Shown here piece by piece: positions 6,713 through 52,078 of a stretch of DNA of 64,000 nucleotides. The position numbers were made by a program, and so were the translations under genes. The stretch is from NCBI GenBank assembly GCA_048887225.1, contig JBHLJY010000007.1:1-64000 (forward strand), read 5' to 3'. Each line of letters opens with the position of its first letter. Position 1 is the stretch's first letter. Under the pieces are notes generated by a model. It worked only from the letters and a program-made list of their open reading frames with translations. It was not told where the DNA came from and made no database searches. This DNA comes from Candidatus Hodarchaeota archaeon. GTDB taxonomy: Archaea > Asgardarchaeota > Lokiarchaeia > Sigyniarchaeales > SOKP01.

Positions 6713-7249
6713 ATGTCAATGGATAAATGGTTTACAAAATATAAATCTAAAGAAGAAAAGAATAAAATAGAAGAATTTTTTAAAGTACTTCCAGAAGAAA
6801 AAGTTCAGGAATTGAAGAAAAAATCAGTCCGAGATTTAACCCAGAGGAAAAGGAAAAATAAAGAAATTAAAAACAAACCCGATGATTTTTTAAGCTATGT
6901 AATTGAATTTAAGGATTGGCTAAACAAGAGAACTTATTTAAAAGGTGATATAGATAAGATAGAAACGTGGATAAGAAATTTAAACAAAAAATTAGATGCT
7001 GAAAAAGTTCAAGGTTTATTAGCTAAAAACAATGTAAAATCTCAATTAATTAACCAATTTAGAAAAATTCCGCATAATATTTTGGATGAAAAAACGAGAA
7101 TCGCGATAAATAAAAAAATTCGAGAGGCAAAAAGAAATAGCTCGGATAATTATTATCTAAGGAAATTAAAAACTACGATTCAAGAAAAATTAAAAGAAGC
7201 GAGTTACTACGGAATTTTAAAAAAAATATTAGAATTTAAGGACATATAA
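6713..7249 (+). CDS. Hypothetical basic, helical protein
   Basis: 178-aa ORF with an ATG start and Lys-rich composition; no motif recognised. Confidence 0.7.
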   Translation: MSMDKWFTKYKSKEEKNKIEEFFKVLPEEKVQELKKKSVRDLTQRKRKNKEIKNKPDDFLSYVIEFKDWLNKRTYLKGDIDKIETWIRNLNKKLDAEKVQGLLAKNNVKSQLINQFRKIPHNILDEKTRIAINKKIREAKRNSSDNYYLRKLKTTIQEKLKEASYYGILKKILEFKDI

Positions 7250-40508: not shown

Positions 40509-41222
40509 TCAATCTCTATGTTTATTTAATTCAATTATAACTTTATCCCCATCTTTTAAATTTAACTTATCCCTCAAATATGGTTCAGCCAAGATTTCAA
40601 TAATGTTTTTTTTATGATGCGTTCTTGCAATATCTAATATTGTTGCAAAGATTTTGTGTTCTCGGTCATCTAAATGAGATATATAACAATTGTAACAACG
40701 AACTGATCCATATGTTCTTTCTGAATTTTCATCTTTAAATCCATTAATTATAATTGGAATGCTATTTTCTAAATTTTCCCTTAAGAGTGAAATATTGAGA
40801 TCATTCATCTCTAAATTTAAAGTTCCTAAATATGGTTTAAATCCTAATTTTTCTTGAAACTGATGATAATAACCTTTGATTGCAACATAATAAGCACCTT
40901 CTCTCATTCCTTCTGTAACTTCACCTACAATTAAAATATTTTCAAGAATATTCTTCAATTCCTTGTAGACATTAAGCATAATATCTGCCCCCGTTTTTGG
41001 AATTCTTATAATTTGTGTCTTCCCCTCAATTTTTCTTTCAATCCATCCCAGTTCTTCTAAATCTTGAATTCGCCGAGATGCGGTTTGCTGACTGACGCCC
41101 ATAATTTCACCAAGCTCAACGCTACTAATATGAATAGATTTTTGATTTCCTATTTGTTGGCAAAGATGATATAATGCAAACCAATTTGCGTAATTATCAG
41201 GCCTTAGTTCTTCTTTTGACAC
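40509..41222 (-). CDS. ribK: CTP-dependent riboflavin kinase with N-terminal winged HTH (RbkR-type)
   Basis: SQQTASRRIQDLE; GEVTEGMREGAYYV; PYLGTLN; RTHH; LRDKLNLKDGD; GTG start after AAGGTGA. Confidence 0.92.
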   Translation of the reverse strand: MSKEELRPDNYANWFALYHLCQQIGNQKSIHISSVELGEIMGVSQQTASRRIQDLEELGWIERKIEGKTQIIRIPKTGADIMLNVYKELKNILENILIVGEVTEGMREGAYYVAIKGYYHQFQEKLGFKPYLGTLNLEMNDLNISLLRENLENSIPIIINGFKDENSERTYGSVRCYNCYISHLDDREHKIFATILDIARTHHKKNIIEILAEPYLRDKLNLKDGDKVIIELNKHRD

Positions 41223-41234
41223 AAATTCACCTTT

Positions 41235-41681
41235 TTATGAATGATCTTTTTTATATCTTTCAATGATTTTCTTCTTTATTAGGCTTGAGCTATGCAGTTT
41301 GTATTTATCGTAAAATTCTTCTATTCTTTTTACTTTAATATGGTTCATCCCTTTCATTTTAAGGGCGTTTTGAAGTCTTTCAAGGCTAAACTTTTGGTCT
41401 GGGCCTAAAAGTATTATATCGGGATTTAATTCTTCCACTGTTTTAAGAGTGTCGTTATCATGCCTTCCTAATTTTGCATCTTTCACATTTTTAATACTTT
41501 TCATTACTTCCAATCTTTGTTGTTCTGGAATAATTGGCATCTCTCCAGAATATAATTCTCTATTTTTATCTGTAGCAACTATAATATAGACGTCTCCTAA
41601 TTTTGCAGCCTCATTTATCAAAAAAATGTGTCCAGGATGTAAAATATCAAATGTTCCAGCTATTAGAACTCTTTTCCGTAT
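41235..41681 (-). CDS. ribL: FAD synthase (archaeal cytidylyltransferase family); N-terminus extended beyond the ORF track, apparent ATA start
   Basis: In-frame upstream IRKRVLIAGTFDILHPGHIF (HxGH motif); PDIILLGPDQ; SSSLIK; adjacent to ribK. Confidence 0.88.
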   Translation of the reverse strand: MRKRVLIAGTFDILHPGHIFLINEAAKLGDVYIIVATDKNRELYSGEMPIIPEQQRLEVMKSIKNVKDAKLGRHDNDTLKTVEELNPDIILLGPDQKFSLERLQNALKMKGMNHIKVKRIEEFYDKYKLHSSSLIKKKIIERYKKDHS

Positions 41682-41713
41682 TTTTTATCATCTCACATTT
41701 AATTTTCATTCAG

Positions 41714-43273
41714 TTAATTTACAACTTTAAAGGAAAGCCCGAGGAAAATCGGACCTCTTATATCAATCTTTTTTTGTTTGGAATGAATAAACTCTTGAAT
41801 GATATCGTCGAGTTCAATATTAACTTCTGAGGCTCGATAACACATCTTTACTCTATGATCATAAGAATTTTTACCTTGCTCAAGCATAATTTCAATATTA
41901 TATGCCATTTCTGAAGCAATCCCTTCCAAATAAGTCATTCCAGTATCAAAGCCATTGCCGGGACTTTCTTCTGGTGATAAACCTAAAATGCTTCCATCCT
42001 TTACCCAAATTTTATTTAAAGTGGCTGGACCAAGAAGTTGAACACCTTCATCTTTTTCCCAAATAGTCACATCAATATTTTTATTCTTGATTATACCATT
42101 CCATACCTTTATTTCTACTGGGGAGGAATCGTTCTTATGTTTAATAGATTTCTCAATTATAGCTTTTTTAATTTCAATTCCTATTTCAGTTAATGGAATG
42201 TATTTGTATTTAATTCCTTTACTTATTTCCTCGTCAGTAAATGAAATGTCTTCATAGAAATATGGGTACACGAGCTTTCTGATATCCTCAATTTCAGTCT
42301 TTATCATACAAATTCTTTCTACTCCGAAACCAACATTAAAAACTGGATATCCAATATTATATTGAGCAAGACTAACGGGACTATAAAATCCGCCATCACC
42401 AATCTCAATCCATTCTTTAGTTTTTGGATGCTCTACAAAAATTTCAAATTCTGTTTGGGGAGCGTAATATTTTGAAGTAGCTTTTTTTATTTCAGATTTA
42501 TTATTATTGAAACCCATTTGCTCACATATTGAAGAAACTATGTTTTGACAATCTTCTAAAGATATATTCTCCGCCATTATTACTAAAGATAAAGTATGAG
42601 AATCATATAAATGAGTGGCATCTATTTTCTGTTCTCTACGAAATTTAGGGCCAATTGTAAAATATTGAAGTGGTAAATTCTTTCTCTTACTCAAATTACT
42701 CAATACTTTAAACCATAATGCTGTTGTATGGCTTCTAAGGGTATTTTTAGTAGGAATTGGTTTAAGATTTTTTAATTCTGGAAATATTTTATCAATGATT
42801 TCAGAGGCTTCGCTTTCTTTTATTTTTAATTCATTTAAAAAAATCTCAATTAAATCATCCGCTTCAATATCCCCTTTTTTATATTTTCTAAAAATATCTT
42901 GTAATGAATCGATTTTATCGAAATTGGGGATTATAGATTGAATCTTTTCGATTTTCTCTTTTGAAATCCCGATATCCGGACGGGGAAGCCCCGCTAAATA
43001 AAATAATCGGTCGAGGATTAATGCGGCTTCTGGACCATATTGTTTATATATCTCATTCTCTTCAACGAACATTGGTAATACTAATTCTTCAAATCCTAAC
43101 CCAATCATTTTGCGTCTGGCTTCTGCGATAAATTCATAAACAGGGTGAGCCAGACCTTTTTTTTCTAAATTAAAAAGATTTCCTTTTAAATTTAGAAGAT
43201 TTCTAGATTCTAACCAAGCTCTCTCATAATTCTTTTTTGCATCTCTTTTTATTTTTTCAATGTCAAAAGGCAT
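41714..43273 (-). CDS. sepS: O-phosphoseryl-tRNA(Cys) synthetase (SepRS)
   Basis: IYKQYGPEAALILDRLFYLAGLPRPDIG, TLRSHTT, FRREQKIDATHL, SKYYAPQTEFE, YPVFNVGFGVER, IDIRGPIF. Confidence 0.95.
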   Translation of the reverse strand: MPFDIEKIKRDAKKNYERAWLESRNLLNLKGNLFNLEKKGLAHPVYEFIAEARRKMIGLGFEELVLPMFVEENEIYKQYGPEAALILDRLFYLAGLPRPDIGISKEKIEKIQSIIPNFDKIDSLQDIFRKYKKGDIEADDLIEIFLNELKIKESEASEIIDKIFPELKNLKPIPTKNTLRSHTTALWFKVLSNLSKRKNLPLQYFTIGPKFRREQKIDATHLYDSHTLSLVIMAENISLEDCQNIVSSICEQMGFNNNKSEIKKATSKYYAPQTEFEIFVEHPKTKEWIEIGDGGFYSPVSLAQYNIGYPVFNVGFGVERICMIKTEIEDIRKLVYPYFYEDISFTDEEISKGIKYKYIPLTEIGIEIKKAIIEKSIKHKNDSSPVEIKVWNGIIKNKNIDVTIWEKDEGVQLLGPATLNKIWVKDGSILGLSPEESPGNGFDTGMTYLEGIASEMAYNIEIMLEQGKNSYDHRVKMCYRASEVNIELDDIIQEFIHSKQKKIDIRGPIFLGLSFKVVN

Positions 43274-43300
43274 TATTTCTCTTTAACTTTTTTAATTATG

Positions 43301-43921
43301 TTAATCGAATTTTATTTTATCATCAATACACTCTTTTAACTCAGATATTCTAAGTGTTAATGAAATGTCTCCTCTTGTTTTTTCAATAATATTTCTTCCC
43401 ACATCAATTTTATGCCTTAAATCTTGAGTTATTCCTGAAGGGTAATCTAAAGAAAATAAGTTTGTATAAATTTCGTCCATATCTTCTAAAATATTATTTA
43501 AATCATCAATTCGAGAATTCCTAATGTTATCTAATGCGTACCGCCGTAATTCTCCTATTACATCTGCTAAGCCTAATAAATAATGAAGAGAGTTTACATT
43601 TAATTCATTAGAGGTTGGCAAGGATAAATTATTGACAATTGAATAAAAGCAAACTGCTTCTGCATATTCTTGTTCAGGAGTTTTTAAGTATTTAAAAAAA
43701 ATTCCAGGATTTTTATTGACCAAATTTGTGAGAGCTTTCAATTTTAATTTAACTTGGTCAATTTTTTCTTTATAAATATTAAATTCCTTTCTATGAATTG
43801 ATTTAATCGCAATGCTACAATTTCGTATTATTTTGCGAGAAATTCTTAATATCTCCTCTCGATCTTTATCAAGTTCATCTAAACCTTTCGTAATTTCTGA
43901 AAAAATATTTTTAAGATTCAT
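43301..43921 (-). CDS. Translin/TRAX family RNase (archaeal C3PO-like)
   Basis: DKDREEILRISRKI, QEYAEA, YLLGLADVIGELRR, LRHKID. Confidence 0.9.
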   Translation of the reverse strand: MNLKNIFSEITKGLDELDKDREEILRISRKIIRNCSIAIKSIHRKEFNIYKEKIDQVKLKLKALTNLVNKNPGIFFKYLKTPEQEYAEAVCFYSIVNNLSLPTSNELNVNSLHYLLGLADVIGELRRYALDNIRNSRIDDLNNILEDMDEIYTNLFSLDYPSGITQDLRHKIDVGRNIIEKTRGDISLTLRISELKECIDDKIKFD

Positions 43922-44045
43922 ATGAATAACTAGATAACTTGGAAATTATTAAAATTTTTAATTAATATAATTAATTAACAAAAGTAAGTAAAATATTTAG
44001 AATTTATCAAAAATATAGTTTAACAAATAAACTAAAGAGATAATC

Positions 44046-44114
44046 GTGAAAATCTTATTAATTCATTCCGATGGAGTGTTCCTTATCTCGAATATATTTA
44101 TAAGCGATTTTTAA
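44046..44114 (+). pseudogene. Orphan 5' fragment of thrS (11 codons), followed by unrelated sequence and a stop
   Basis: GTG AAA ATC TTA TTA ATT CAT TCC GAT GGA GTG (MKILLIHSDGV) versus thrS start MKMLLIHSDGV at 45907-45939; 28/33 nt identical. Confidence 0.8.
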
Positions 44115-45906
44115 CCTTAATCTTCTTTATAAATCAATTATTTTATTAGGTGTTCACATTTTTAATATTAATTTAATATTACATAACCCTGTGTAATGTT
44201 TTCTCTAAAGTAGTAAGAAGTAAAATTATATATAGACATAATCATAAAATATATTCGGTGGTTAAGGTGTTTGAAAAACCACAAAAAAAATTATTTTGTT
44301 CAAATCCGAATATATGCCAGAAGAAAAAAAAAAGAAAACAGAATGTGCAGATGATCCTTTTTTATTAAGTAAAGCTAACGAAATTTGTAATGCGAGCGAC
44401 CATATTGATGAATATCCAAGTTCCCCAATCCAAACCTCTAAAGATTTTATTGAGGGTACCCCTTATATTAACTTGGGAAAACCAATTGAGGATTTAACAC
44501 CGAAGGAATTCAAGGAATCTTATAAGGGCGTATATTCTAACCTCTTTAAGTTCGTAAAAGATCGCCATAATATCGATTTAGGTATCATGACTCGAGATGG
44601 TTTAACTAAGTTAATAAGAAAAATGAATTATTATGGTATAATTTATAATTTTACTCAGATAAAAGATGGAGAAGGGAACGATATTCATTATGGCCCCAGT
44701 TGGGTAAAAGATGATAAAAAAGTTATCGCTGGATTTCATCGAATTGGTCGAGCAATTAATATAGAGGATCGGAAAACTTTATATAAGAGAGAAAAAACTG
44801 GAAAACATTTTGAGAATACATTCCAAAAATTAGGTCCTAGAGCATTTAATTTTAATTTTTTAGCGGTTTGTAAAAATGAACAAGAATATAAAGCTACTGA
44901 ATATTTTTGGCAATTATATTTTAATAGAGAGGAAAATGAAGATGGTTATGATTTACGAAATAATGGCAATTTTAATAATAGATTAGGAAGTATGTATGAT
45001 AATATTTCAAATCTAATTTTACCCAAATATTATTTAGTAAGAGATATCTTATATGGCTTAGACAAATTCGAATTAGATGAGAGATATAAAAATTTAAAGG
45101 GTATAATCTCCGTTAAACAAGCATTAATACATAATTTTGGGATAGAGTCTATTTTTAAAATAAGGGCTATGTTAGTCGCTCCTTTATTAGATTATAATCT
45201 TAAAAGAGGGTTAACCGAGCAAGAAAATATTGAAAAATTGATAGAGTCTGGTTTTGGAATGTTTGATAAAAATCTAATACAGGAGAGGAGTAGAGAGTAT
45301 GGTCCATCCTCAACAAGGACAAATCCCAAGAATCTTTTTCAAAGAATACTCGTATATACGTACGGTCCCCCTAGAATCCGACCTAGTAGAGTCTTTACTC
45401 ATTATGAGCAACTTAGAAAAGAGAATTTCTTTGAACCATTCATAGAGTATCTTAAAGATTTAAATATTGCCGAAATAATTGGTGAATCACAAAACGATCA
45501 AAATACGCTTTCTATTGTAGATTATTTATTTGAAAAATGTCTTTCACCTACTTATATAGTTAAATATTTAGGATACAAAGGGAGTGAGGCAGAATTATTA
45601 ATAAATAAAATAAACAATTACTTGAATAGGAGATGGAGACCTTTGATAGAGCAGTTTTCTTGGGATAAACTCAGATTATTCCTTAAATTCCATCCATTAA
45701 TAATTTCCACACATAAAGTATACTCTAAATATTTATAAAAAGTTTATAGATGATATTGCATTTCATTTTAGAGTTAATTATGATTCAATTGCTCAAATAA
45801 ACAGAATCCTTACTTAATACTTTTTTATTTAAAATTCAATATTAAAAAAATTTATCATTTATATTAGATTCATAGGATATATATAATTATTTGGTGTTTG
45901 TTGCAT
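44079..45906 (+). mobile_element. Putative free-standing homing-endonuclease insertion at the thrS 5' end
   Basis: About 1.83 kb bracketed by the two thrS-start copies; contains a single GIY-YIG-like ORF; interrupts a divergent translin/thrS housekeeping arrangement. Confidence 0.6.
44296..45738 (+). CDS. GIY-YIG (I-TevI-like) endonuclease domain protein with long helical C-terminal region; likely ATG start at 44314
   Basis: YYGIIYNFT...HRIGRAINIEDRKTLY...HFENTFQKLGPRAFNFNFLAVC...EYKATEYFWQLYF...DGYDL at 44635-44955 follows the GIY / YIG / R / F-x-F / E-x-FW / GYN order. Confidence 0.62.
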   Translation: MFKSEYMPEEKKKKTECADDPFLLSKANEICNASDHIDEYPSSPIQTSKDFIEGTPYINLGKPIEDLTPKEFKESYKGVYSNLFKFVKDRHNIDLGIMTRDGLTKLIRKMNYYGIIYNFTQIKDGEGNDIHYGPSWVKDDKKVIAGFHRIGRAINIEDRKTLYKREKTGKHFENTFQKLGPRAFNFNFLAVCKNEQEYKATEYFWQLYFNREENEDGYDLRNNGNFNNRLGSMYDNISNLILPKYYLVRDILYGLDKFELDERYKNLKGIISVKQALIHNFGIESIFKIRAMLVAPLLDYNLKRGLTEQENIEKLIESGFGMFDKNLIQERSREYGPSSTRTNPKNLFQRILVYTYGPPRIRPSRVFTHYEQLRKENFFEPFIEYLKDLNIAEIIGESQNDQNTLSIVDYLFEKCLSPTYIVKYLGYKGSEAELLINKINNYLNRRWRPLIEQFSWDKLRLFLKFHPLIISTHKVYSKYL

Positions 45907-47964
45907 ATGAAAATGTTATTAATTCATTCAGATGGCGTAGAAGTAAGGAAACACAAAGAGGCAACAAGCAATCCTCAAGAGTTTTCTGAAGATTTCATAA
46001 AATTGGATGGTTTAATACTTATAGCTTATGTTTCTATCGAAGACCAAGATACATATGACACAGATATAATAGCTAAACAAGGAGCTGATGTTATAGAAGA
46101 AGCAATTTTCCTTATTACAGGGTTCCCTGAAAAAATACGTCAAAGGAATGAAGAAATAAGAGAACATAACCGAAAAGTAGAAGAAGGTAAAATAAAAGGA
46201 AAACCAAGAAAATATCTTGAATTAATCGCTGGAAGGGATAAATACATTGTTGACAAAGTATTAGTTTATCCATGGGCACATTTAAGTAAATTTTTAAGTC
46301 AAGATCCAAATGCGGCGGAAGTATGCCCAAAAATAGCTAAAATCTTAGAATCTAAAGGAATTAAGTCAAAATTCTCTCCATTTGGATGGTATAAATCTTT
46401 TAAAATTAATTGTATCGGGCATGAAGTAGCTGAAATGTATAGAGATGTAAAGCTTTATATTCAGCCAGAAGAACATTTGCAAAAGGCTCAATTTTTTGTA
46501 ATTACTCCAGAAGGAAAAGAAATAAAAATTCAAATAGATGACAATAAAGAAGTTTTGCCAATAAAAGAAGTCGATGAGGATTTTAATTTATTTATTAAAT
46601 CAGAATTAGGTGTTAGAAGAGCTGATCTCGGAGAAGAACCACCGCATATTAAGATAATGAAAAAGTTTGAGCTAATTGATTTCGAAAAAAATTCTGATAG
46701 TGGGAACTTGCGTTGGTATCCTAAGGGTGTAATTATGAAGAACCTTATCAAAAATTATTTAGATGAGAAGTTAATTGATTTTGGAGCAATTCTAGTTGAT
46801 ACACCTATTATGTATACCGTAAAAAGCAAGAAATTAACTGCCCAAACTGCGAGATTTCCAGCCAGAACATATTGGGTTGAATCAGGAAATAATCGATTTT
46901 TACTAAGATTTGCTGGGGATTTCCTCCAATTTGATATGTTTAGTGGAATGAACTTGAAACCTTCCTATTTCCCTCTAAAATTATATGAATATGAGCAGTA
47001 TGATTTCAGGAGGGAGAAAGAAGGAGAATTAACTGGTTTAAGGCGATTAAGAGGCTTTGTCATGCCAGATTTTCATACTCTGTGCAAGGATTTGGATTCA
47101 TCTGTTGAAGAATTTAAGAAACAATATGACTTAGATCAACAAGTTGCCGAGGATTTAGGAATTAAAGATCACTTAATTTTCAGGACAACACACGATTTTT
47201 ACAAAAAAAATAAAGGTTGGATTAAGGAATTAGTAAAAAAAGAAAACAAACCTGCTTTATTGGAACTCTGGGATGATAGGTATTATTATTTTGTTTTGAA
47301 GTTTGAAAGAGGAGTACTTTCCGCTCAAGATAAAAGCGGTACTCTCGCAACAATTCAAATTGATGTTGAAAGTACTTTAGAATATTTAGAAGATAAAGAT
47401 GGCAAAAAGAGACAAAAATATAATATTTACTTTACTGATGATGATGGGATTAAAAAGCATCCAATTATTCTTCACAATTCACCTTCAGGAGGTTTGGAGA
47501 GAGTGTTATGGGGGCTAATTGAAACAGCAATCAGAGAAAAGGATAAAATAGTTCCAGGGTTTAAAACGTGGTTATCTCCAATCCAAATAAGAGTAATAAC
47601 TGTCAGTAATAATCAGAACGAATACGCTGGAAAAATAATGCAAATTCTTAATGATCAAGGTTATAGAGCGGATTTCGATGATCGCGAAGAAAAAATAGGA
47701 AAAAAAATAAGACTAGCAGAAATTGAATGGATTCCTTATATAGTAATTGTAGGTAAAACAGAACAAGAGAATGAAACTATTTCTCTTCGTAAAAGATTAA
47801 TCGGACAACCGTTTGGCCCAAAAGGGAATACATCAGAGCAGTTAAAGAATATTCAACTAGAAAAGTTTTTAGAACTCCTTGAAAAAGATACGAAAGGATT
47901 TCCTAAATACAAGCTTCCGATACCATTTAGAAGGACTTCAACTAAAATATTCTTTCGTCGCTAG
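45907..47964 (+). CDS. thrS: Threonine--tRNA ligase, archaeal type with N-terminal editing domain
   Basis: MLLIHSD, YPWAHLS, PFGWYKSF, CIGH, FRREKEGELTGLRRLRGFVMPDFHT, ILHNSPSGGLER, WLSPIQIR; ATG at 45907 preferred (GGTG upstream). Confidence 0.96.
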   Translation: MKMLLIHSDGVEVRKHKEATSNPQEFSEDFIKLDGLILIAYVSIEDQDTYDTDIIAKQGADVIEEAIFLITGFPEKIRQRNEEIREHNRKVEEGKIKGKPRKYLELIAGRDKYIVDKVLVYPWAHLSKFLSQDPNAAEVCPKIAKILESKGIKSKFSPFGWYKSFKINCIGHEVAEMYRDVKLYIQPEEHLQKAQFFVITPEGKEIKIQIDDNKEVLPIKEVDEDFNLFIKSELGVRRADLGEEPPHIKIMKKFELIDFEKNSDSGNLRWYPKGVIMKNLIKNYLDEKLIDFGAILVDTPIMYTVKSKKLTAQTARFPARTYWVESGNNRFLLRFAGDFLQFDMFSGMNLKPSYFPLKLYEYEQYDFRREKEGELTGLRRLRGFVMPDFHTLCKDLDSSVEEFKKQYDLDQQVAEDLGIKDHLIFRTTHDFYKKNKGWIKELVKKENKPALLELWDDRYYYFVLKFERGVLSAQDKSGTLATIQIDVESTLEYLEDKDGKKRQKYNIYFTDDDGIKKHPIILHNSPSGGLERVLWGLIETAIREKDKIVPGFKTWLSPIQIRVITVSNNQNEYAGKIMQILNDQGYRADFDDREEKIGKKIRLAEIEWIPYIVIVGKTEQENETISLRKRLIGQPFGPKGNTSEQLKNIQLEKFLELLEKDTKGFPKYKLPIPFRRTSTKIFFRR

Positions 47965-47974
47965 GTTAAGTTTA

Positions 47975-48598
47975 ATGACAATTAAAGTTATTATATTTGA
48001 TTTAGGAGGAGTTATTATTGAATTAGATTACTTAAACTTTTACAATAAAATAATAACGTTATCACCTTCAGAAAATCCCCGTACTCGAACTATGTTAGAA
48101 TTCTTTCGGCAATCTGACTTATACCATCAAGGAAAAATGTCTGACGAGGATTTTTACCATCTTGCTTGTAATCTGCTACAAGTTTGTATGTTAAATCAAT
48201 CTGAATTTTACAAAGCTTTTAATAGCATCGTTTCGCATCCTATTCCTGAAGCTATTGATTTGCTGAAAAAATTAAAAAAATTAAATAAATATAAACTAAT
48301 AGCTATGTCAAACGTCAATGCTAGCCATTGGGATTATATTTTAAGAAAAAATTGGGATTTTTTAGATTATTTTGATGAATTAATTCTTTCCCATGAAGTG
48401 AAAATAACTAAACCTGATCCTAAAATCTTCACATATGCAATAAAAAAAGCCAAATGTAAACCCAAAGAAATTGTATTTGTAGATGATGGGTCTAATAATG
48501 TGCGTTCAGCTGAAAAGTTAGGAATTATAGGAATTCATTTTATAAACATAGAAAAATTGATAAAGGACTTTGAAAAATTAAATATAAAATTTAATTAG
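47975..48598 (+). CDS. HAD-superfamily phosphatase (YihX-like); start corrected to ATG 47975
   Basis: IIFDLGGVI, MSN, KPDPKIF, FVDDGSNNV. Confidence 0.9.
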   Translation: MTIKVIIFDLGGVIIELDYLNFYNKIITLSPSENPRTRTMLEFFRQSDLYHQGKMSDEDFYHLACNLLQVCMLNQSEFYKAFNSIVSHPIPEAIDLLKKLKKLNKYKLIAMSNVNASHWDYILRKNWDFLDYFDELILSHEVKITKPDPKIFTYAIKKAKCKPKEIVFVDDGSNNVRSAEKLGIIGIHFINIEKLIKDFEKLNIKFN

Positions 48599-49116
48599 AT
48601 CTCCATACATACTACGCATGCTTTTGCGATATAGTTGAAAGCTTTCTCAACATTATCTCCTGTCTTTGCTGAAGTTTCTAAATAATCGCAGCCCAATCTT
48701 TTTGCTAAATCCTCTGCTTCCGTTCTATCCACCTGACGTTTCAAATCACTTTTATTCCCTAATAAAATCATCGGTATGGTTTTTTTAACTGTCTTTTTTA
48801 TTGATGACACCCACCCTGGGATTTTTAAGAGAGATTGTGGACTAGTTAAGTCATAAACTCCTAGAGCTGCATTGCTTCCTTTGAAATAAATAGTTCGGAG
48901 TTTATGGAATTGTGGTTGCCCACCAATATCCCAAAGAAGTAATCTTACTTGCTTTCCTTCAATTTCAACATCCTTTATTAAAAAATTTGATCCAATAGTC
49001 TTTTTCAAATCCTCACTGAAGTGATCTTTTACAAAACGAAGTAAAAGAGAGGTCTTACCGACGCCTCCTGGTCCAAAGAGAGTAATTTTGAATTTAAATT
49101 CGCTTGATTCGCTGAT
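48595..49116 (-). CDS. Rab-like small GTPase; N-terminus extended beyond the ORF track, apparent ATC (or ATT 49122) start
   Basis: In-frame FKFKITLFGPGGVGKTSLLLRF (G1), TIGSNF (G2), WDIGGQ (G3), YFKGS, VYDLT, GNKSD (G4), ETSAK (G5). Confidence 0.92.
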   Translation of the reverse strand: MSESSEFKFKITLFGPGGVGKTSLLLRFVKDHFSEDLKKTIGSNFLIKDVEIEGKQVRLLLWDIGGQPQFHKLRTIYFKGSNAALGVYDLTSPQSLLKIPGWVSSIKKTVKKTIPMILLGNKSDLKRQVDRTEAEDLAKRLGCDYLETSAKTGDNVEKAFNYIAKACVVCMEI

Positions 49117-49255
49117 TTCAATAACCTTTTTCGAGTTATTTTAAGTCGATTTTGTTTTACTTCTAGTACTAATATTGATATAATTGTTCTAAAATATTTA
49201 TATATTTATAATAACTTTTAGCCAAAAATTATTTTTAATCTCATTTGAATAATTT

Positions 49256-50617
49256 CTATCTTTCAATAACTTTTTCAATTTTTTTCTTTTTTTTAAAGGT
49301 TTCCTTAATTTTTTCAGTTTCTTTTATTACAATCTCTTCAATTTTTTTTTCAATCTTCTTAGCTTCCTTTTTCACGGTTTCTCCCGTCTTTTGCCCTATT
49401 CTACTAATTTGTATCATTATCCATTCGGGTGAGCCTACTCCATTGCCATATTCGTTCCAAATATAAAGAAGGAATCCTAAAAAACCTAGGTAGGCGAGAC
49501 AGACAAATGGAAAAACCACGATGCTAAATTGACCTATATATAAAAGAAGAAAAACATATTCAACTAAAAATAGACTCAAAGATATTTTTCCGTAATATTC
49601 TATCATACTGGTAAATTTATTATCGTGATTCTTAATATCTATGAGATAGAAACAAATAGCAATAAGTAGGAGCGCAGCACCTAAGTTATAAAACATATTT
49701 CCCATTGTACCCCTTATTAAGAATTCAGGCATACCCGGAAAGTTATAATAGTTTTGTTGATTCATAATTGAGTATAATCGTAAATGAGGGTATTCAGATT
49801 CTACCATAGTCTCAGGAGTTTGCAATCGCAGACCTAATATTACTCCAAGTACGACAAAAATTATTCCCCAAATCATAAACAGCCTAAATAAGCGGAAATA
49901 AGCATCTTCAGTTCCTAATATCATTGTATCGTAAAGATATTCACCAAATATACTTGAAATGAAGCAAACTGAGAGCCAAGGGAAAAGCGTTATTTCGGGA
50001 GTTGGTGATGTGACGATAAAATGCGTAAGCCATATTAATGGATTGGAATCCTTTTCTAAATAAAGAAATTCTCTAAAAATTGGTGAAATCAGAATAATTA
50101 TAATCCCAATGACAGCACGAAACCATTTTTTCAATTTTACTGCGTAATATGAGAAAATCTGAGAAAATCCAATAAACATAAGAATGTTCCAACCCCATAG
50201 GTTGAGAGGAAATGGAATATCAGGACGAACCACGCTTAAACCTATTAAATTAAAGATCATTCCCATTACTATAATTGTAAATCCTCTCGAAAAGATTCTG
50301 TTTCGAATCACTTTATCAGGTAATTTTCCTTTTTTTCTCCTAATGCTGAAAATTACGCTAAGCGCAGAAAGGAAAATGAATAGCGATGGTCCCAATATAT
50401 CAAGCGCAGCGTATGCCATACCGTGTATGTATATCCAATCGTCATCAAACCATACACTAGATGTATGGGCAATAATTATAAATATAATCGCAAAACCCTT
50501 GACGAAGTCTATGGATCTAATACGTTGAGGAGACGCGTAATCTCGGATATCTTCAATAGGGATCTCTTCTTTCAAATAACTTACGAGGTCAGGTTTTTTT
50601 TCTTCTTTTGACGACAT
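49256..50617 (-). CDS. Polytopic membrane acyltransferase-like protein (DUF1624/HGSNAT-like); start moved to ATG 50617
   Basis: RIRSIDFVKGFAI, PSLFIFLS, WNILMFIG, LFPWL, GKISLSLFL; about 10 TM segments. Confidence 0.75.
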   Translation of the reverse strand: MSSKEEKKPDLVSYLKEEIPIEDIRDYASPQRIRSIDFVKGFAIIFIIIAHTSSVWFDDDWIYIHGMAYAALDILGPSLFIFLSALSVIFSIRRKKGKLPDKVIRNRIFSRGFTIIVMGMIFNLIGLSVVRPDIPFPLNLWGWNILMFIGFSQIFSYYAVKLKKWFRAVIGIIIILISPIFREFLYLEKDSNPLIWLTHFIVTSPTPEITLFPWLSVCFISSIFGEYLYDTMILGTEDAYFRLFRLFMIWGIIFVVLGVILGLRLQTPETMVESEYPHLRLYSIMNQQNYYNFPGMPEFLIRGTMGNMFYNLGAALLLIAICFYLIDIKNHDNKFTSMIEYYGKISLSLFLVEYVFLLLYIGQFSIVVFPFVCLAYLGFLGFLLYIWNEYGNGVGSPEWIMIQISRIGQKTGETVKKEAKKIEKKIEEIVIKETEKIKETFKKKKKIEKVIER

Positions 50618-50740
50618 TCTTACTATTAATAATAAAACATATTTCCTTAAAAATTTAAAAAACAAATTAATATTTTTAGATATATTTTAATATTAGTTTA
50701 TTTAGTTTTTATGATTTGAACATTTGCATTAAACAAAAAC

Positions 50741-51157
50741 ATGTCTCTAAAAGAAAAATTTAAGACACACATTGATTACAGAATAATAGGATTGGTTGGT
50801 TCAATATTACTGATTATATCTGAATTTTTACCTTGGTTTTCAGGATTCTCATGTTTTGATATTTATATTTTATATACTATCGTAGCTGTAGAAGAATCAT
50901 TTCTATATTTATTTCCACTAATAAGTGGAATCATTTGTTTAATAGCCAGTATTTTAATTATTTTTGACCAATCATATAAAATTAATTCTGTTCTTATTAA
51001 TTTCATTGGTTTGGGTTTTCTAATATTATTTCTTTTTGAAATAATTCCTGGTGAACTGTTTTATCTTCCAAGTGCAGGTATAGGATTTTATTTATGTATA
51101 AGTGGCACTCTTATAACCTTGATTGGAATAATTATGATATTATTATCAAAAGAATAA
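50741..51157 (+). CDS. Four-TM membrane protein of unknown function
   Basis: Hydrophobic segments, FLPWF, GIGFYL. Confidence 0.75.
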   Translation: MSLKEKFKTHIDYRIIGLVGSILLIISEFLPWFSGFSCFDIYILYTIVAVEESFLYLFPLISGIICLIASILIIFDQSYKINSVLINFIGLGFLILFLFEIIPGELFYLPSAGIGFYLCISGTLITLIGIIMILLSKE

Positions 51158-51178
51158 ATATTAAGAAGGTAATAAATT

Positions 51179-52078
51179 ATTAGCAAAAAAAATGAAGATC
51201 TTTTAAAAAAGGATCAGAATCAAGGCATTGAATCTAGTTTTTATTATGCCTTAAGTCACGACATTCGCAGAAAAATTATCAAAATCATTGGTGATGATAG
51301 ATTTTCGTCATTTACGAATCTCAAAAAAATTTTAAAAGTAAGTACTGGTACGATTTATCATCATCTAGATTCATTATCTCAATTGATTGAACAGAAAGAG
51401 GACAAAAAGTATTATTTGACTGACTTAGGAATGTACGCATATAATTCTTTAAAAGAAAATATTGAGATAATAGAATCGCCAGATATTTCAAAACGGGAAT
51501 TTAATTCGCCTTTTTTGAGATTTTTAATGTTTTTAACTCCTAAAAAATTTATTTCATTTGAAGAAAAAGATAAAGTTTATAATTCCATAGTTTCTCTTAG
51601 TATTTTAATGATAGGCGCGATACTTTGTGGATTAAACGCATTTTACACATTTTTTATATTTCATATAGAAACTACAGAAGATATTTATAAGTTAGAAATT
51701 ATTTCTCACGTATATTTTTCTATATTATATATACTTAATTTCATAATTTCTTTTTTGCTCGTAGAAGGAAGTTGTCGTTTATTTTACAAGAAAAAAGAGA
51801 GAACCCTCGATTTCCTCTTTACCTTACCGATTATATTTTATCCGATGGTAATTTACTTATTAATACATTTCATTTTATTATCTTCAGAATTACTTATTAA
51901 AATAACATTTTTCCGTATTATAGATGTCTTTCTACTCATTTTTTTTCAAGTTTTATCCCTGTGGTTGTTAACCTATAGTATTAGTGTGAATAAAGGATTA
52001 AAAATCGAAAATGGATTAATAGTTTCTTTATTTCTACATTGGGGTAGTTTTACAATTGTTTTGTTTTTACTTATTTGA
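51179..52078 (+). CDS. ArsR-type winged-helix regulator fused to a multi-TM (Yip1-like) domain; N-terminus extended, apparent ATT start
   Basis: In-frame upstream YYALSHDIRRKIIKII...SFTNLKKILKVSTGTIYHHLDSLSQLIEQ...YYLTDLG; about 5 TM segments follow. Confidence 0.8.
   Translation: MSKKNEDLLKKDQNQGIESSFYYALSHDIRRKIIKIIGDDRFSSFTNLKKILKVSTGTIYHHLDSLSQLIEQKEDKKYYLTDLGMYAYNSLKENIEIIESPDISKREFNSPFLRFLMFLTPKKFISFEEKDKVYNSIVSLSILMIGAILCGLNAFYTFFIFHIETTEDIYKLEIISHVYFSILYILNFIISFLLVEGSCRLFYKKKERTLDFLFTLPIIFYPMVIYLLIHFILLSSELLIKITFFRIIDVFLLIFFQVLSLWLLTYSISVNKGLKIENGLIVSLFLHWGSFTIVLFLLI

Follow-up and report, generated by a model that had tools for sequence, protein, structure and literature searches.

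Putative initiation at AUA, AUC and AUU codons in three genes of a Lokiarchaeial genome and its recurrence across the genome

Introduction

NCBI translation table 11 lists ATT, ATC and ATA as alternative initiators. In Escherichia coli, two genes that start at such codons have been confirmed, infC and pcnB (10.1101/063800), and reviews of archaeal start codons name AUG, GUG and UUG only (PMC4705826). The AUU start of infC serves the autoregulation of IF3, and eIF1 is autoregulated via an AUG in a poor context (PMC4705826). For the tubulin AtubA of a metagenome-assembled genome from the Heimdall group of Asgard archaea (Kariarchaeaceae), a 'rare ATT start codon' was proposed, as an upstream ATT at a plausible distance from the ribosome-binding site restores the first beta strand (PMC13394414). 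In the literature searched, no mention of such starts in Asgard archaea was found beyond this single-gene remark. Here we analysed 64,000 nt of a Lokiarchaeial genome (Candidatus Hodarchaeota archaeon, contig JBHLJY010000007.1; C7:1-64000, hereafter the window), in which a ribL-like gene, a gene for a Ras/Rab-like small GTPase and a gene for a protein with a putative N-terminal winged helix followed by a multi-pass membrane domain lack a canonical start codon. The genome measures 3.27 Mb in 49 contigs, has 30% GC and is a metagenome-type assembly. ATH denotes ATA, ATC or ATT, AUH the same codons in mRNA, and canonical refers to ATG, GTG and TTG.

The putative AUH starts resemble those of infC and pcnB in that a near-cognate codon stands behind a Shine-Dalgarno (SD) element, the initiator tRNA is ordinary and the gene of a fidelity factor is affected (infC there, that of aIF1 here). 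They differ from them in number (at least 55–70 genes, including ribosomal proteins), in the host, an archaeon with factors of eukaryotic type (aIF1, aIF2) but no IF3, and in the use of all three AUH codons, which interchange between species. The autoregulation of eIF1 and near-cognate initiation in eukaryotes (CUG, ACG, AUU) follow the same logic, in that the gene for the factor rejecting weak starts has a weak start itself, and aIF1 is the homolog of eIF1. Here, however, the weak element would be the codon itself, selection is SD-directed and not by scanning, and autoregulation is an analogy. AtubA is also an Asgard protein whose N-terminus was restored by an upstream ATT, but it was treated in a methods-section remark on a single gene, without genome-wide or comparative analysis. 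Relative to standard archaeal starts, most genes of this genome use AUG, GUG or UUG with the same SD and spacing, and AUH forms a regular minority class. This study adds three genes whose putative AUH starts were verified by orthology, together with internal controls and an initial survey of the spread across families.

Results and discussion

Three genes without a canonical start codon

A preliminary description of the window had claimed that the three genes contain no ATG, GTG or TTG between the upstream in-frame stop and an N-terminal motif, and the sequence bore this out (Table 1). The leader of ribL, on the minus strand, reads TGA (41690) TAA (41687) AAA ATA (41681) CGG AAA AGA GTT CTA ATA GCT GGA ACA TTT GAT ATT TTA CAT CCT GGA CAC. 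Its first canonical codon, TTG 41621, lies downstream of the GTFDxxHxGH motif, leaving a gap of 21 codons between the stop and the first canonical codon. The protein matched Pfam CTP_transf_like (PF01467, E 5e-19, residues 8–138), with GTFDILHPGH at residues 10–19, and close homologs are named 'FAD synthase' in NCBI sources. Based on domain and motif, the product of this single-copy gene is predicted to be RibL or a cytidylyltransferase-like nucleotidyltransferase.

In the GTPase gene, also on the minus strand, the leader reads TAA (49143) AAT AAC TCG AAA AAG GTT ATT (49122) GAA ATC (49116) AGC. The P-loop GPGGVGKT follows 13 codons 3' of ATC 49116 (within TTT GGA CCA GGA GGC GTC GGT AAG ACC), while the first canonical codon, TTG 49008, comes 36 codons past the ATC, for a stop-to-canonical gap of 44 codons. 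The protein covered model positions 1–159 of the 162 in Pfam Ras (PF00071, E 3e-49) with the GxxxxGK[ST] P-loop present, and is thus predicted to be a Ras-superfamily small GTPase, with Rab as a descriptive label. The third gene, on the plus strand, opens with TAA TAA ATT (51176) ATT (51179) AGC; TTG 51383, its first canonical codon, lies 68 codons past ATT 51179 (gap of 69 codons). Several winged-helix families matched residues 23–88 of the protein, all below threshold: DUF7347 (24 bits, cut-off 27.6), HTH_5 (17.9, cut-off 22) and HTH_34.

Gaps of this length (21, 44 and 69 codons), coding for conserved domains, are not expected by chance. Within the window, the rate of SD-placed ATH starts was 3/44 open reading frames (ORFs). 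Long gaps also occur elsewhere in the window (ORFs at 7233, 33423, 53448, 63006 and others), but these ORFs were rejected as ATH cases; they look canonical, with non-coding sequence upstream. An Rfam scan of the window gave no matches, so no riboswitch or leader accounts for the starts.

The proposal that such starts lead to systematic truncation in annotations held in part. Truncated ribL calls of 128 aa starting at TTG exist in other records, but the public call on this contig starts at ATA (148 aa, MRKRVLIAGTFD), as does the call for one NCBI ortholog, and in another NCBI call the protein begins with MAGTFD, from the second ATH. One related NCBI contig (L229) ends short of the GTPase and winged-helix genes.

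Shine-Dalgarno geometry

The 3' end of the 16S rRNA is GGATCACCUCCU (also given as GGATCACCTCCT and GGAUCACCUCCU). From the tail GGATCACCTCCT it follows that the SD is part of AGGAGGTGATCC. Upstream of first-ATG codons (n = 1,976), G was enriched at positions −15 to −8, and the 4-mers GGAG, GAGG, AGGT, GGTG and GTGA peaked in register, with the T of GGT about 9 nt ahead of the ATG. We give SD distances from the T of the SD core GGT to the start codon.

Each Ile codon had been said to sit behind a purine element, and this was the case, with spacers of 6, 7 and 8 nt for the preferred codons of ribL, the GTPase and the winged-helix gene (Table 1). In ribL, GAGATGA precedes ATA 41681 by 6 nt (distance 9). 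The neighbouring candidates are more poorly spaced, at distance 2 for ATT 49122 and 6 for ATT 51176. Judging from spacing and orthologs, ATC 49116 and ATT 51179 are the preferred putative starts, with ATT 51176 a less likely alternative. The same geometry at canonical starts had been pointed out for GTG 41222 and ATG 53519; both indeed have AAGGT, at distance 7 compared with 8–9 in the three genes. At a spacing of 9, the TGA within GGTGA or GATGA falls in frame, and many such ORFs therefore open only two codons before the ATH. The predicted anti-SD duplex was strong (−6 kcal/mol or stronger) at 46% of putative ATH starts versus 20% of ATG starts, which fits the idea that a strong SD makes up for a weak codon.

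Table 1. Positions and start regions of the genes and elements discussed (coordinates without a contig label refer to the window)
Feature	Coordinates	Strand	Start codon, element or first domain
ribL-like FAD synthetase/cytidylyltransferase-family gene	41235..41681	-	start ATA 41681-41679, 148 aa
SD element of ribL, GAGATGAT	41687..41694	-	7/8 positions match GAGGTGAT (complement of 16S 3' end); includes the in-frame stop TGA
Ras/Rab-like small GTPase gene	48595..49116	-	start ATC 49116-49114, 173 aa
SD element of GTPase gene, AAGGT	49124..49128	-	7 nt ahead of ATC 49116, distance 8
Winged-helix (ArsR-like, sub-threshold) and multi-pass membrane protein gene	51179..52078	+	start ATT 51179, 299 aa
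SD element of winged-helix gene, AAGGT	51166..51170	+	8 nt ahead of ATT 51179, distance 9
Canonical comparator, gene downstream of ribL	41220..41233	-	AAGGTGA-4 nt-GTG; GTG 41222, AAGGT distance 7
aIF1 (loci L068, L077)	C26:21104-21430	-	ATC at C26:21418, 12 nt past GTGA of AAGGTTGTGA
Initiator tRNA	C34:11007-11133		48-nt intron at ARAGORN position 41
sucC and sucD (loci L057, L058)	C32:14788-16792	-	sucC ATT (IHLLEYESKEIL); sucD ATA (IYIKKESKVMVQGITG)
SucC			ATP-grasp_2, residues 3-194
SucD			CoA_binding, residues 5-96
uS10	C43:7605-7910	+	GGTGA-n6-ATA; domain residues 5-99
uS11	C1:226340-226735	-	AGGTGA-n6-ATT; domain residues 10-127
GPN-loop ATPase			residues 6-248
Ras-like GTPase (genome-wide set)			residues 2-154
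MinD/ParA-like ATPase			residues 3-183
FAD/NAD Rossmann protein			residues 6-72
ThiI			residues 3-195
HisA/F-family protein			His_biosynth, residues 2-229
Phosphoglucomutase			residues 4-140
Rubrerythrin with N-terminal rubredoxin domain			residues 6-34
SRPBCC protein			residues 4-129

Comparison with orthologs

Codons at the homologous positions, a check raised in the preliminary description, were conserved ATH that alternate with ATG or GTG in more distant relatives. In ribL, ATA was kept in six independent assemblies of the same genus, each with a stop followed by one or two codons and then ATA. The codons beside the ATA vary (CGG, GGT, CCT, AAA), and the SD is GAGaTGA or GAGcTGA at an unchanged distance. 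Locus L002 shares the A6 run and the reading frame; L003–L005 read ATG AGC TGA TCT AAA ATA, and L009 reads TTG AGA TGA AAT AAA ATA. In L015 and L018, from other genera, the sequence is cTGATAA AAA ATG, that is, an ATG at the codon of the ATA with equal SD spacing.

Orthologs of the GTPase gene were compared at the codon 7 nt past (G/A)AGGT. This codon is ATC in five genomes (G001, G003, G004, G005 and G009) and ATA in G007; it is ATT in G026, G028 and G030, from other families, GTG in G027 and ATG in G029, with four families covered in all. The SD at the matching place is GAGGT, AGGGT or GGAGGT, and in every ortholog 5–7 residues separate the start codon from the conserved YKFK strand. One further ortholog, in G006 (L045, G006:C161:9867-13406), has an ATG start, a different N-terminus and an in-frame TAG at the place of the P-loop (KVTSRDS*); it may be a pseudogene or carry an insertion or an intron.

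For the winged-helix gene, orthologs from two genera read GGAAGGTAA TTA ACT ATT/ATC AAT (ATT in G001, G003 and G004, ATC in G012). ATT 51179 aligns with the ATT of these orthologs, and distant orthologs begin at ATG. Between the ATH and the first canonical codon, the orthologs of all three genes show conservation at the protein level and synonymous changes in the DNA. As read from these alignments, ATT, ATC and ATA replace one another, and are replaced by ATG or GTG, in the way expected of a start codon.

Genome-wide occurrence

The genome-wide set consisted of 2,851 stop-to-stop ORFs that do not overlap and whose codon usage is coding-like. If only ATG, GTG and TTG started genes, the gap from the stop to the first canonical codon would be noncoding and its length would decay geometrically. 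The decay had a half-length of 5 codons for gaps of up to about 15 codons. Extrapolating this geometric decay of the short gaps predicts about 11 ORFs with gaps of at least 40 codons and <1 with gaps of at least 60 codons; 66 and 34 were observed. The codon log-odds score discriminates poorly on short stretches without a stop, as even short gaps score 0.13 per codon, and was applied only to gaps of at least 40 codons, in which the median was 0.26–0.27 versus 0.28 in the gene body.

An initial SD criterion, 5 or more consecutive matches to a 12-mer template over six shifts, was too permissive (background of 3%) and gave no bulk ATH enrichment. It was replaced by a test for G-rich 4-mers at distance 8–10, restricted to codons that precede the first canonical start by 8 codons or more. 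The distance from SD to ATH peaked at 9–10 nt, as for ATG (28 and 16 per 1000, background approximately 8), while AT-rich control codons were flat at 4–8. An SD at distance 8–10 was found for 97/1596 ATH codons (6.1%), compared with 71/4283 AT-rich controls (1.7%; odds ratio 3.8, p=3e-17) and 227/8836 of all other sense codons (2.6%; p=1e-11). For ACT, ACA and ACC, the rate was equal to that of ATH (22/361, 6.1%). ATH codons inside genes showed no SD excess. SD-placed ATH codons at most 12 codons from the stop occurred in 74 genes versus approximately 17 expected. We arrive at a floor of about 55–70 genes (2–2.5%) with SD-positioned AUH starts, and probably more, as the floor leaves out ATH starts with a weak SD or with a canonical codon within 8 codons.

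Twenty genome-wide candidate ORFs were cut from the ATH and scanned against Pfam. In 13 of them, the first domain began at residues 2–10 and at model positions 1–4, with the first canonical codon 9–110 codons further in (Table 1). TFB and aIF1 also fall within the ATH-started set, and uS10, uS11 and aIF1 are each present in a single copy. The first canonical codon of uS10 lies 65 codons inside the domain. The sucC and sucD genes are adjacent, and both lack a canonical start.

Initiation factor aIF1 and initiator tRNA

The gene for aIF1, the start-codon proofreading factor, is itself on a near-cognate codon. It reads AAGGTTGTGA AAA GAC AAA ATC AAA GAC up to CPICS, and the protein matched Pfam SUI1 (E 9e-18, residues 26–96). 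In the same family, that codon is ATT or ATC at approximately 26 loci, which represent at least 12 genera; a canonical codon ahead of the zinc knuckle is absent from most of them, and three carry a GTG inside the SD-like element. The sister family has mostly TTG, GTG or ATG, most other Asgard families have ATG, and two further families (L157; L162 and L166) have AGGAGG-9 nt-ATA. By analogy with known fidelity factors, the AUH start of aIF1 is a candidate feedback loop on start-codon stringency.

One initiator tRNA was found, with A1:U72, a GGG/CCC anticodon stem and the anticodon CAU. Its intron does not occupy the canonical 37/38 site (Table 1). A second initiator-like tRNA with another anticodon was not found by ARAGORN with introns or by blastn with the initiator exons, in a tRNA catalogue (31 found by ARAGORN and 27 by Rfam) that lacks some tRNAs, probably owing to introns.

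Distribution across Asgard genomes

The same SD-ATH statistic was applied to small samples of other genomes. In a complete genome of the sister family (G032, 800 kb), 5.1% of ATH codons had an SD compared with 2.7% of AT-rich controls. The corresponding values in 400-kb samples were 9.0% and 5.0% for G033 (53% GC), 7.7% and 2.2% for G041 (a 1.4-Mb genome), and 4.0% and 3.6% for G064, which amounts to no signal. Individual convincing cases of ATH starts were found in G032 and G033. Within these small samples, the trait is strongest in the family of the window and patchy elsewhere. G041 is a single-contig genome of another family, and its signal (G041:C1:500001-900000, loci L189–L208) was mostly from ATA (10/88 vs 2.2% in the control). 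This SD-ATA enrichment indicates that AUH starts are not confined to the Lokiarchaeial family.

Favoured explanation and alternatives

Taken together, the sequences favour three intact genes translated from AUA (ribL), AUC (GTPase) and AUU (winged-helix gene) as part of a genome-wide habit, to which we assign a probability of roughly 0.8. An SD duplex with the 16S 3' end (GGAUCACCUCCU) would set the AUH codon in the P site, 8–9 nt past the T of the GGT core, and the single initiator tRNA (CAU) would pair with a third-position mismatch and insert Met as the first residue. The machinery would be more tolerant of AUH than that of E. coli or Sulfolobus. The preliminary description had suggested relaxed start-codon selection in this lineage; as a habit of the genome this stood, on ortholog, genome-wide and Pfam evidence, while relaxation at the level of the machinery is a matter of inference.

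Several points weigh against this reading. In E. coli, AUA, AUC and AUU initiate at 1–2% of the level of AUG (10.1101/063800), and Sulfolobus aIF1 rejects AUU in vitro (PMC4705826). High expression of ribosomal proteins from AUH would need a property of the lineage beyond that known in E. coli and Sulfolobus. A check of aIF1 for changes in its fidelity residues had been suggested; a full-length alignment to M. jannaschii aIF1 (4MO0, E 4e-26) showed no obvious loss, and the basic loop was kept. In samples of some other Asgard families the signal is weak (G032) or lacking (G064), and the winged-helix assignment of the third gene falls below the Pfam gathering scores. The support for ATH initiation is sequence-based throughout, from orthologs, SD elements, genome-wide statistics and domain boundaries.

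The strongest competing explanation accepts the AUH starts as real but sees them as weak, gene-specific devices for low or regulated expression, as in infC and pcnB, with stringency unchanged in the lineage. The intact appearance of aIF1, the ordinary initiator tRNA and the listing of the three codons in translation table 11 agree with it, as do the stronger SDs at ATH, which are expected where a weak codon needs compensation, and regulators and small GTPases are plausible low-abundance proteins. The set, however, also holds the single-copy uS10 and uS11, TFB and the adjacent SucC and SucD, which are hard to square with an efficiency of 1–2%, and it runs to dozens of cases compared with the two confirmed in E. 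coli. An ATH start of aIF1 across the family would moreover couple the supply of the fidelity factor to stringency. We consider this explanation unlikely, though far from negligible. The presence of single-copy ribosomal protein genes on AUH, despite the low efficiency of AUH in E. coli, argues for real tolerance. That stringency is constitutively relaxed toward AUH, and perhaps toward ACG and CUG, in this Lokiarchaeial family and is set by a feedback loop through aIF1 is a tentative proposal, which we would sooner doubt than accept.

Explanations that do away with AUH initiation altogether fared worse. Sequencing or assembly errors (homopolymer indels, miscalls) or pseudogenes could hide genes that truly start at ATG or are dead: A-runs adjoin two of the starts, ribL has an ATG at 41691 that is separated from the start by the A6 run and shifted by a single base, and the assembly is a metagenome-type one in 49 contigs. 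An ATG restored in the reads by indels or substitutions, or pseudogenes whose orthologs all use ATG, had been named in advance as the outcome that would overturn the proposed starts. The orthologs speak against both: independent assemblies have the same ATH and frame, L002 has the same A6, and other orthologs have the ATA without a nearby out-of-frame ATG. The open frames, the conserved N-terminal motifs, the interchange of ATT, ATC and ATA among species and the recurrence of the pattern in dozens of genes also speak against errors or dead genes, which we regard as very improbable. Recoding, whether by an upstream canonical start with a +1 frameshift (ribL ATG 41691), by stop read-through or by reinitiation after a start-stop mini-ORF, hardly fares better. 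In its favour, ribL has the out-of-frame ATG with an A-run, and in-frame strings of a start, 0–1 codon and TGA precede several ATH codons (GTG AGA TGA TAA in ribL at 41687-41696; TTG TGA in the aIF1 leaders of L077–L093). Such strings are probably what an SD of GGTGA or GATGA spells, with the TGA in frame at a spacing of 9; the GTPase gene has no start-stop string, two consecutive stops precede ribL and the winged-helix gene, and neither the frame of the ribL ATG nor the A-run is conserved (L003–L005, L009). For ribL, the A6 run of L002 and the frames of L003–L005 and L009 exclude both a homopolymer error and conservation of a +1 frameshift site. Finally, the proteins might start at the first downstream TTG, leaving the conserved upstream stretch untranslated, as in those public ribL calls that give the 128-aa form. 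With such a start, ribL would lack its HxGH nucleotide-binding motif, the GTPase its P-loop and switch I, and the third protein its entire winged-helix domain; the upstream stretches are conserved as protein with synonymous changes. No G-rich SD core precedes any of the three TTGs (the one in the GTPase gene has only GTGA at distance 7), and we give this possibility very little weight.

Initiation at AUH is usually treated as a rare curiosity, and a lineage with a few percent of its genes on such codons, including ribosomal proteins, TFB and aIF1, would differ from this picture. Gene calling of Asgard proteomes would be affected, since eukaryotic signature proteins such as small GTPases lose the P-loop when callers permit only ATG, GTG and TTG, as the tubulin lost its first strand. 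The lineage would also offer a natural system for how machinery of the eIF1/eIF2 type sets start-codon stringency in relatives of eukaryotes, with the suggested aIF1 feedback loop open to testing. If the family-wide relaxation set by aIF1 were true, it would parallel, in archaea closely related to eukaryotes, the autoregulation of infC and eIF1, and even ribosomal proteins could be expressed from AUH.

Other near-cognate codons

Other near-cognate starts (ACG, CTG) are likely in this genome. Upstream of the first canonical start, ACG had an SD at distance 8–10 in 7/60 cases. A minus-strand ORF on C6, opening 3,995 nt from the high-coordinate end of the contig, reads GAGGTGATAA GAA CTG, with the CTG at distance 9.

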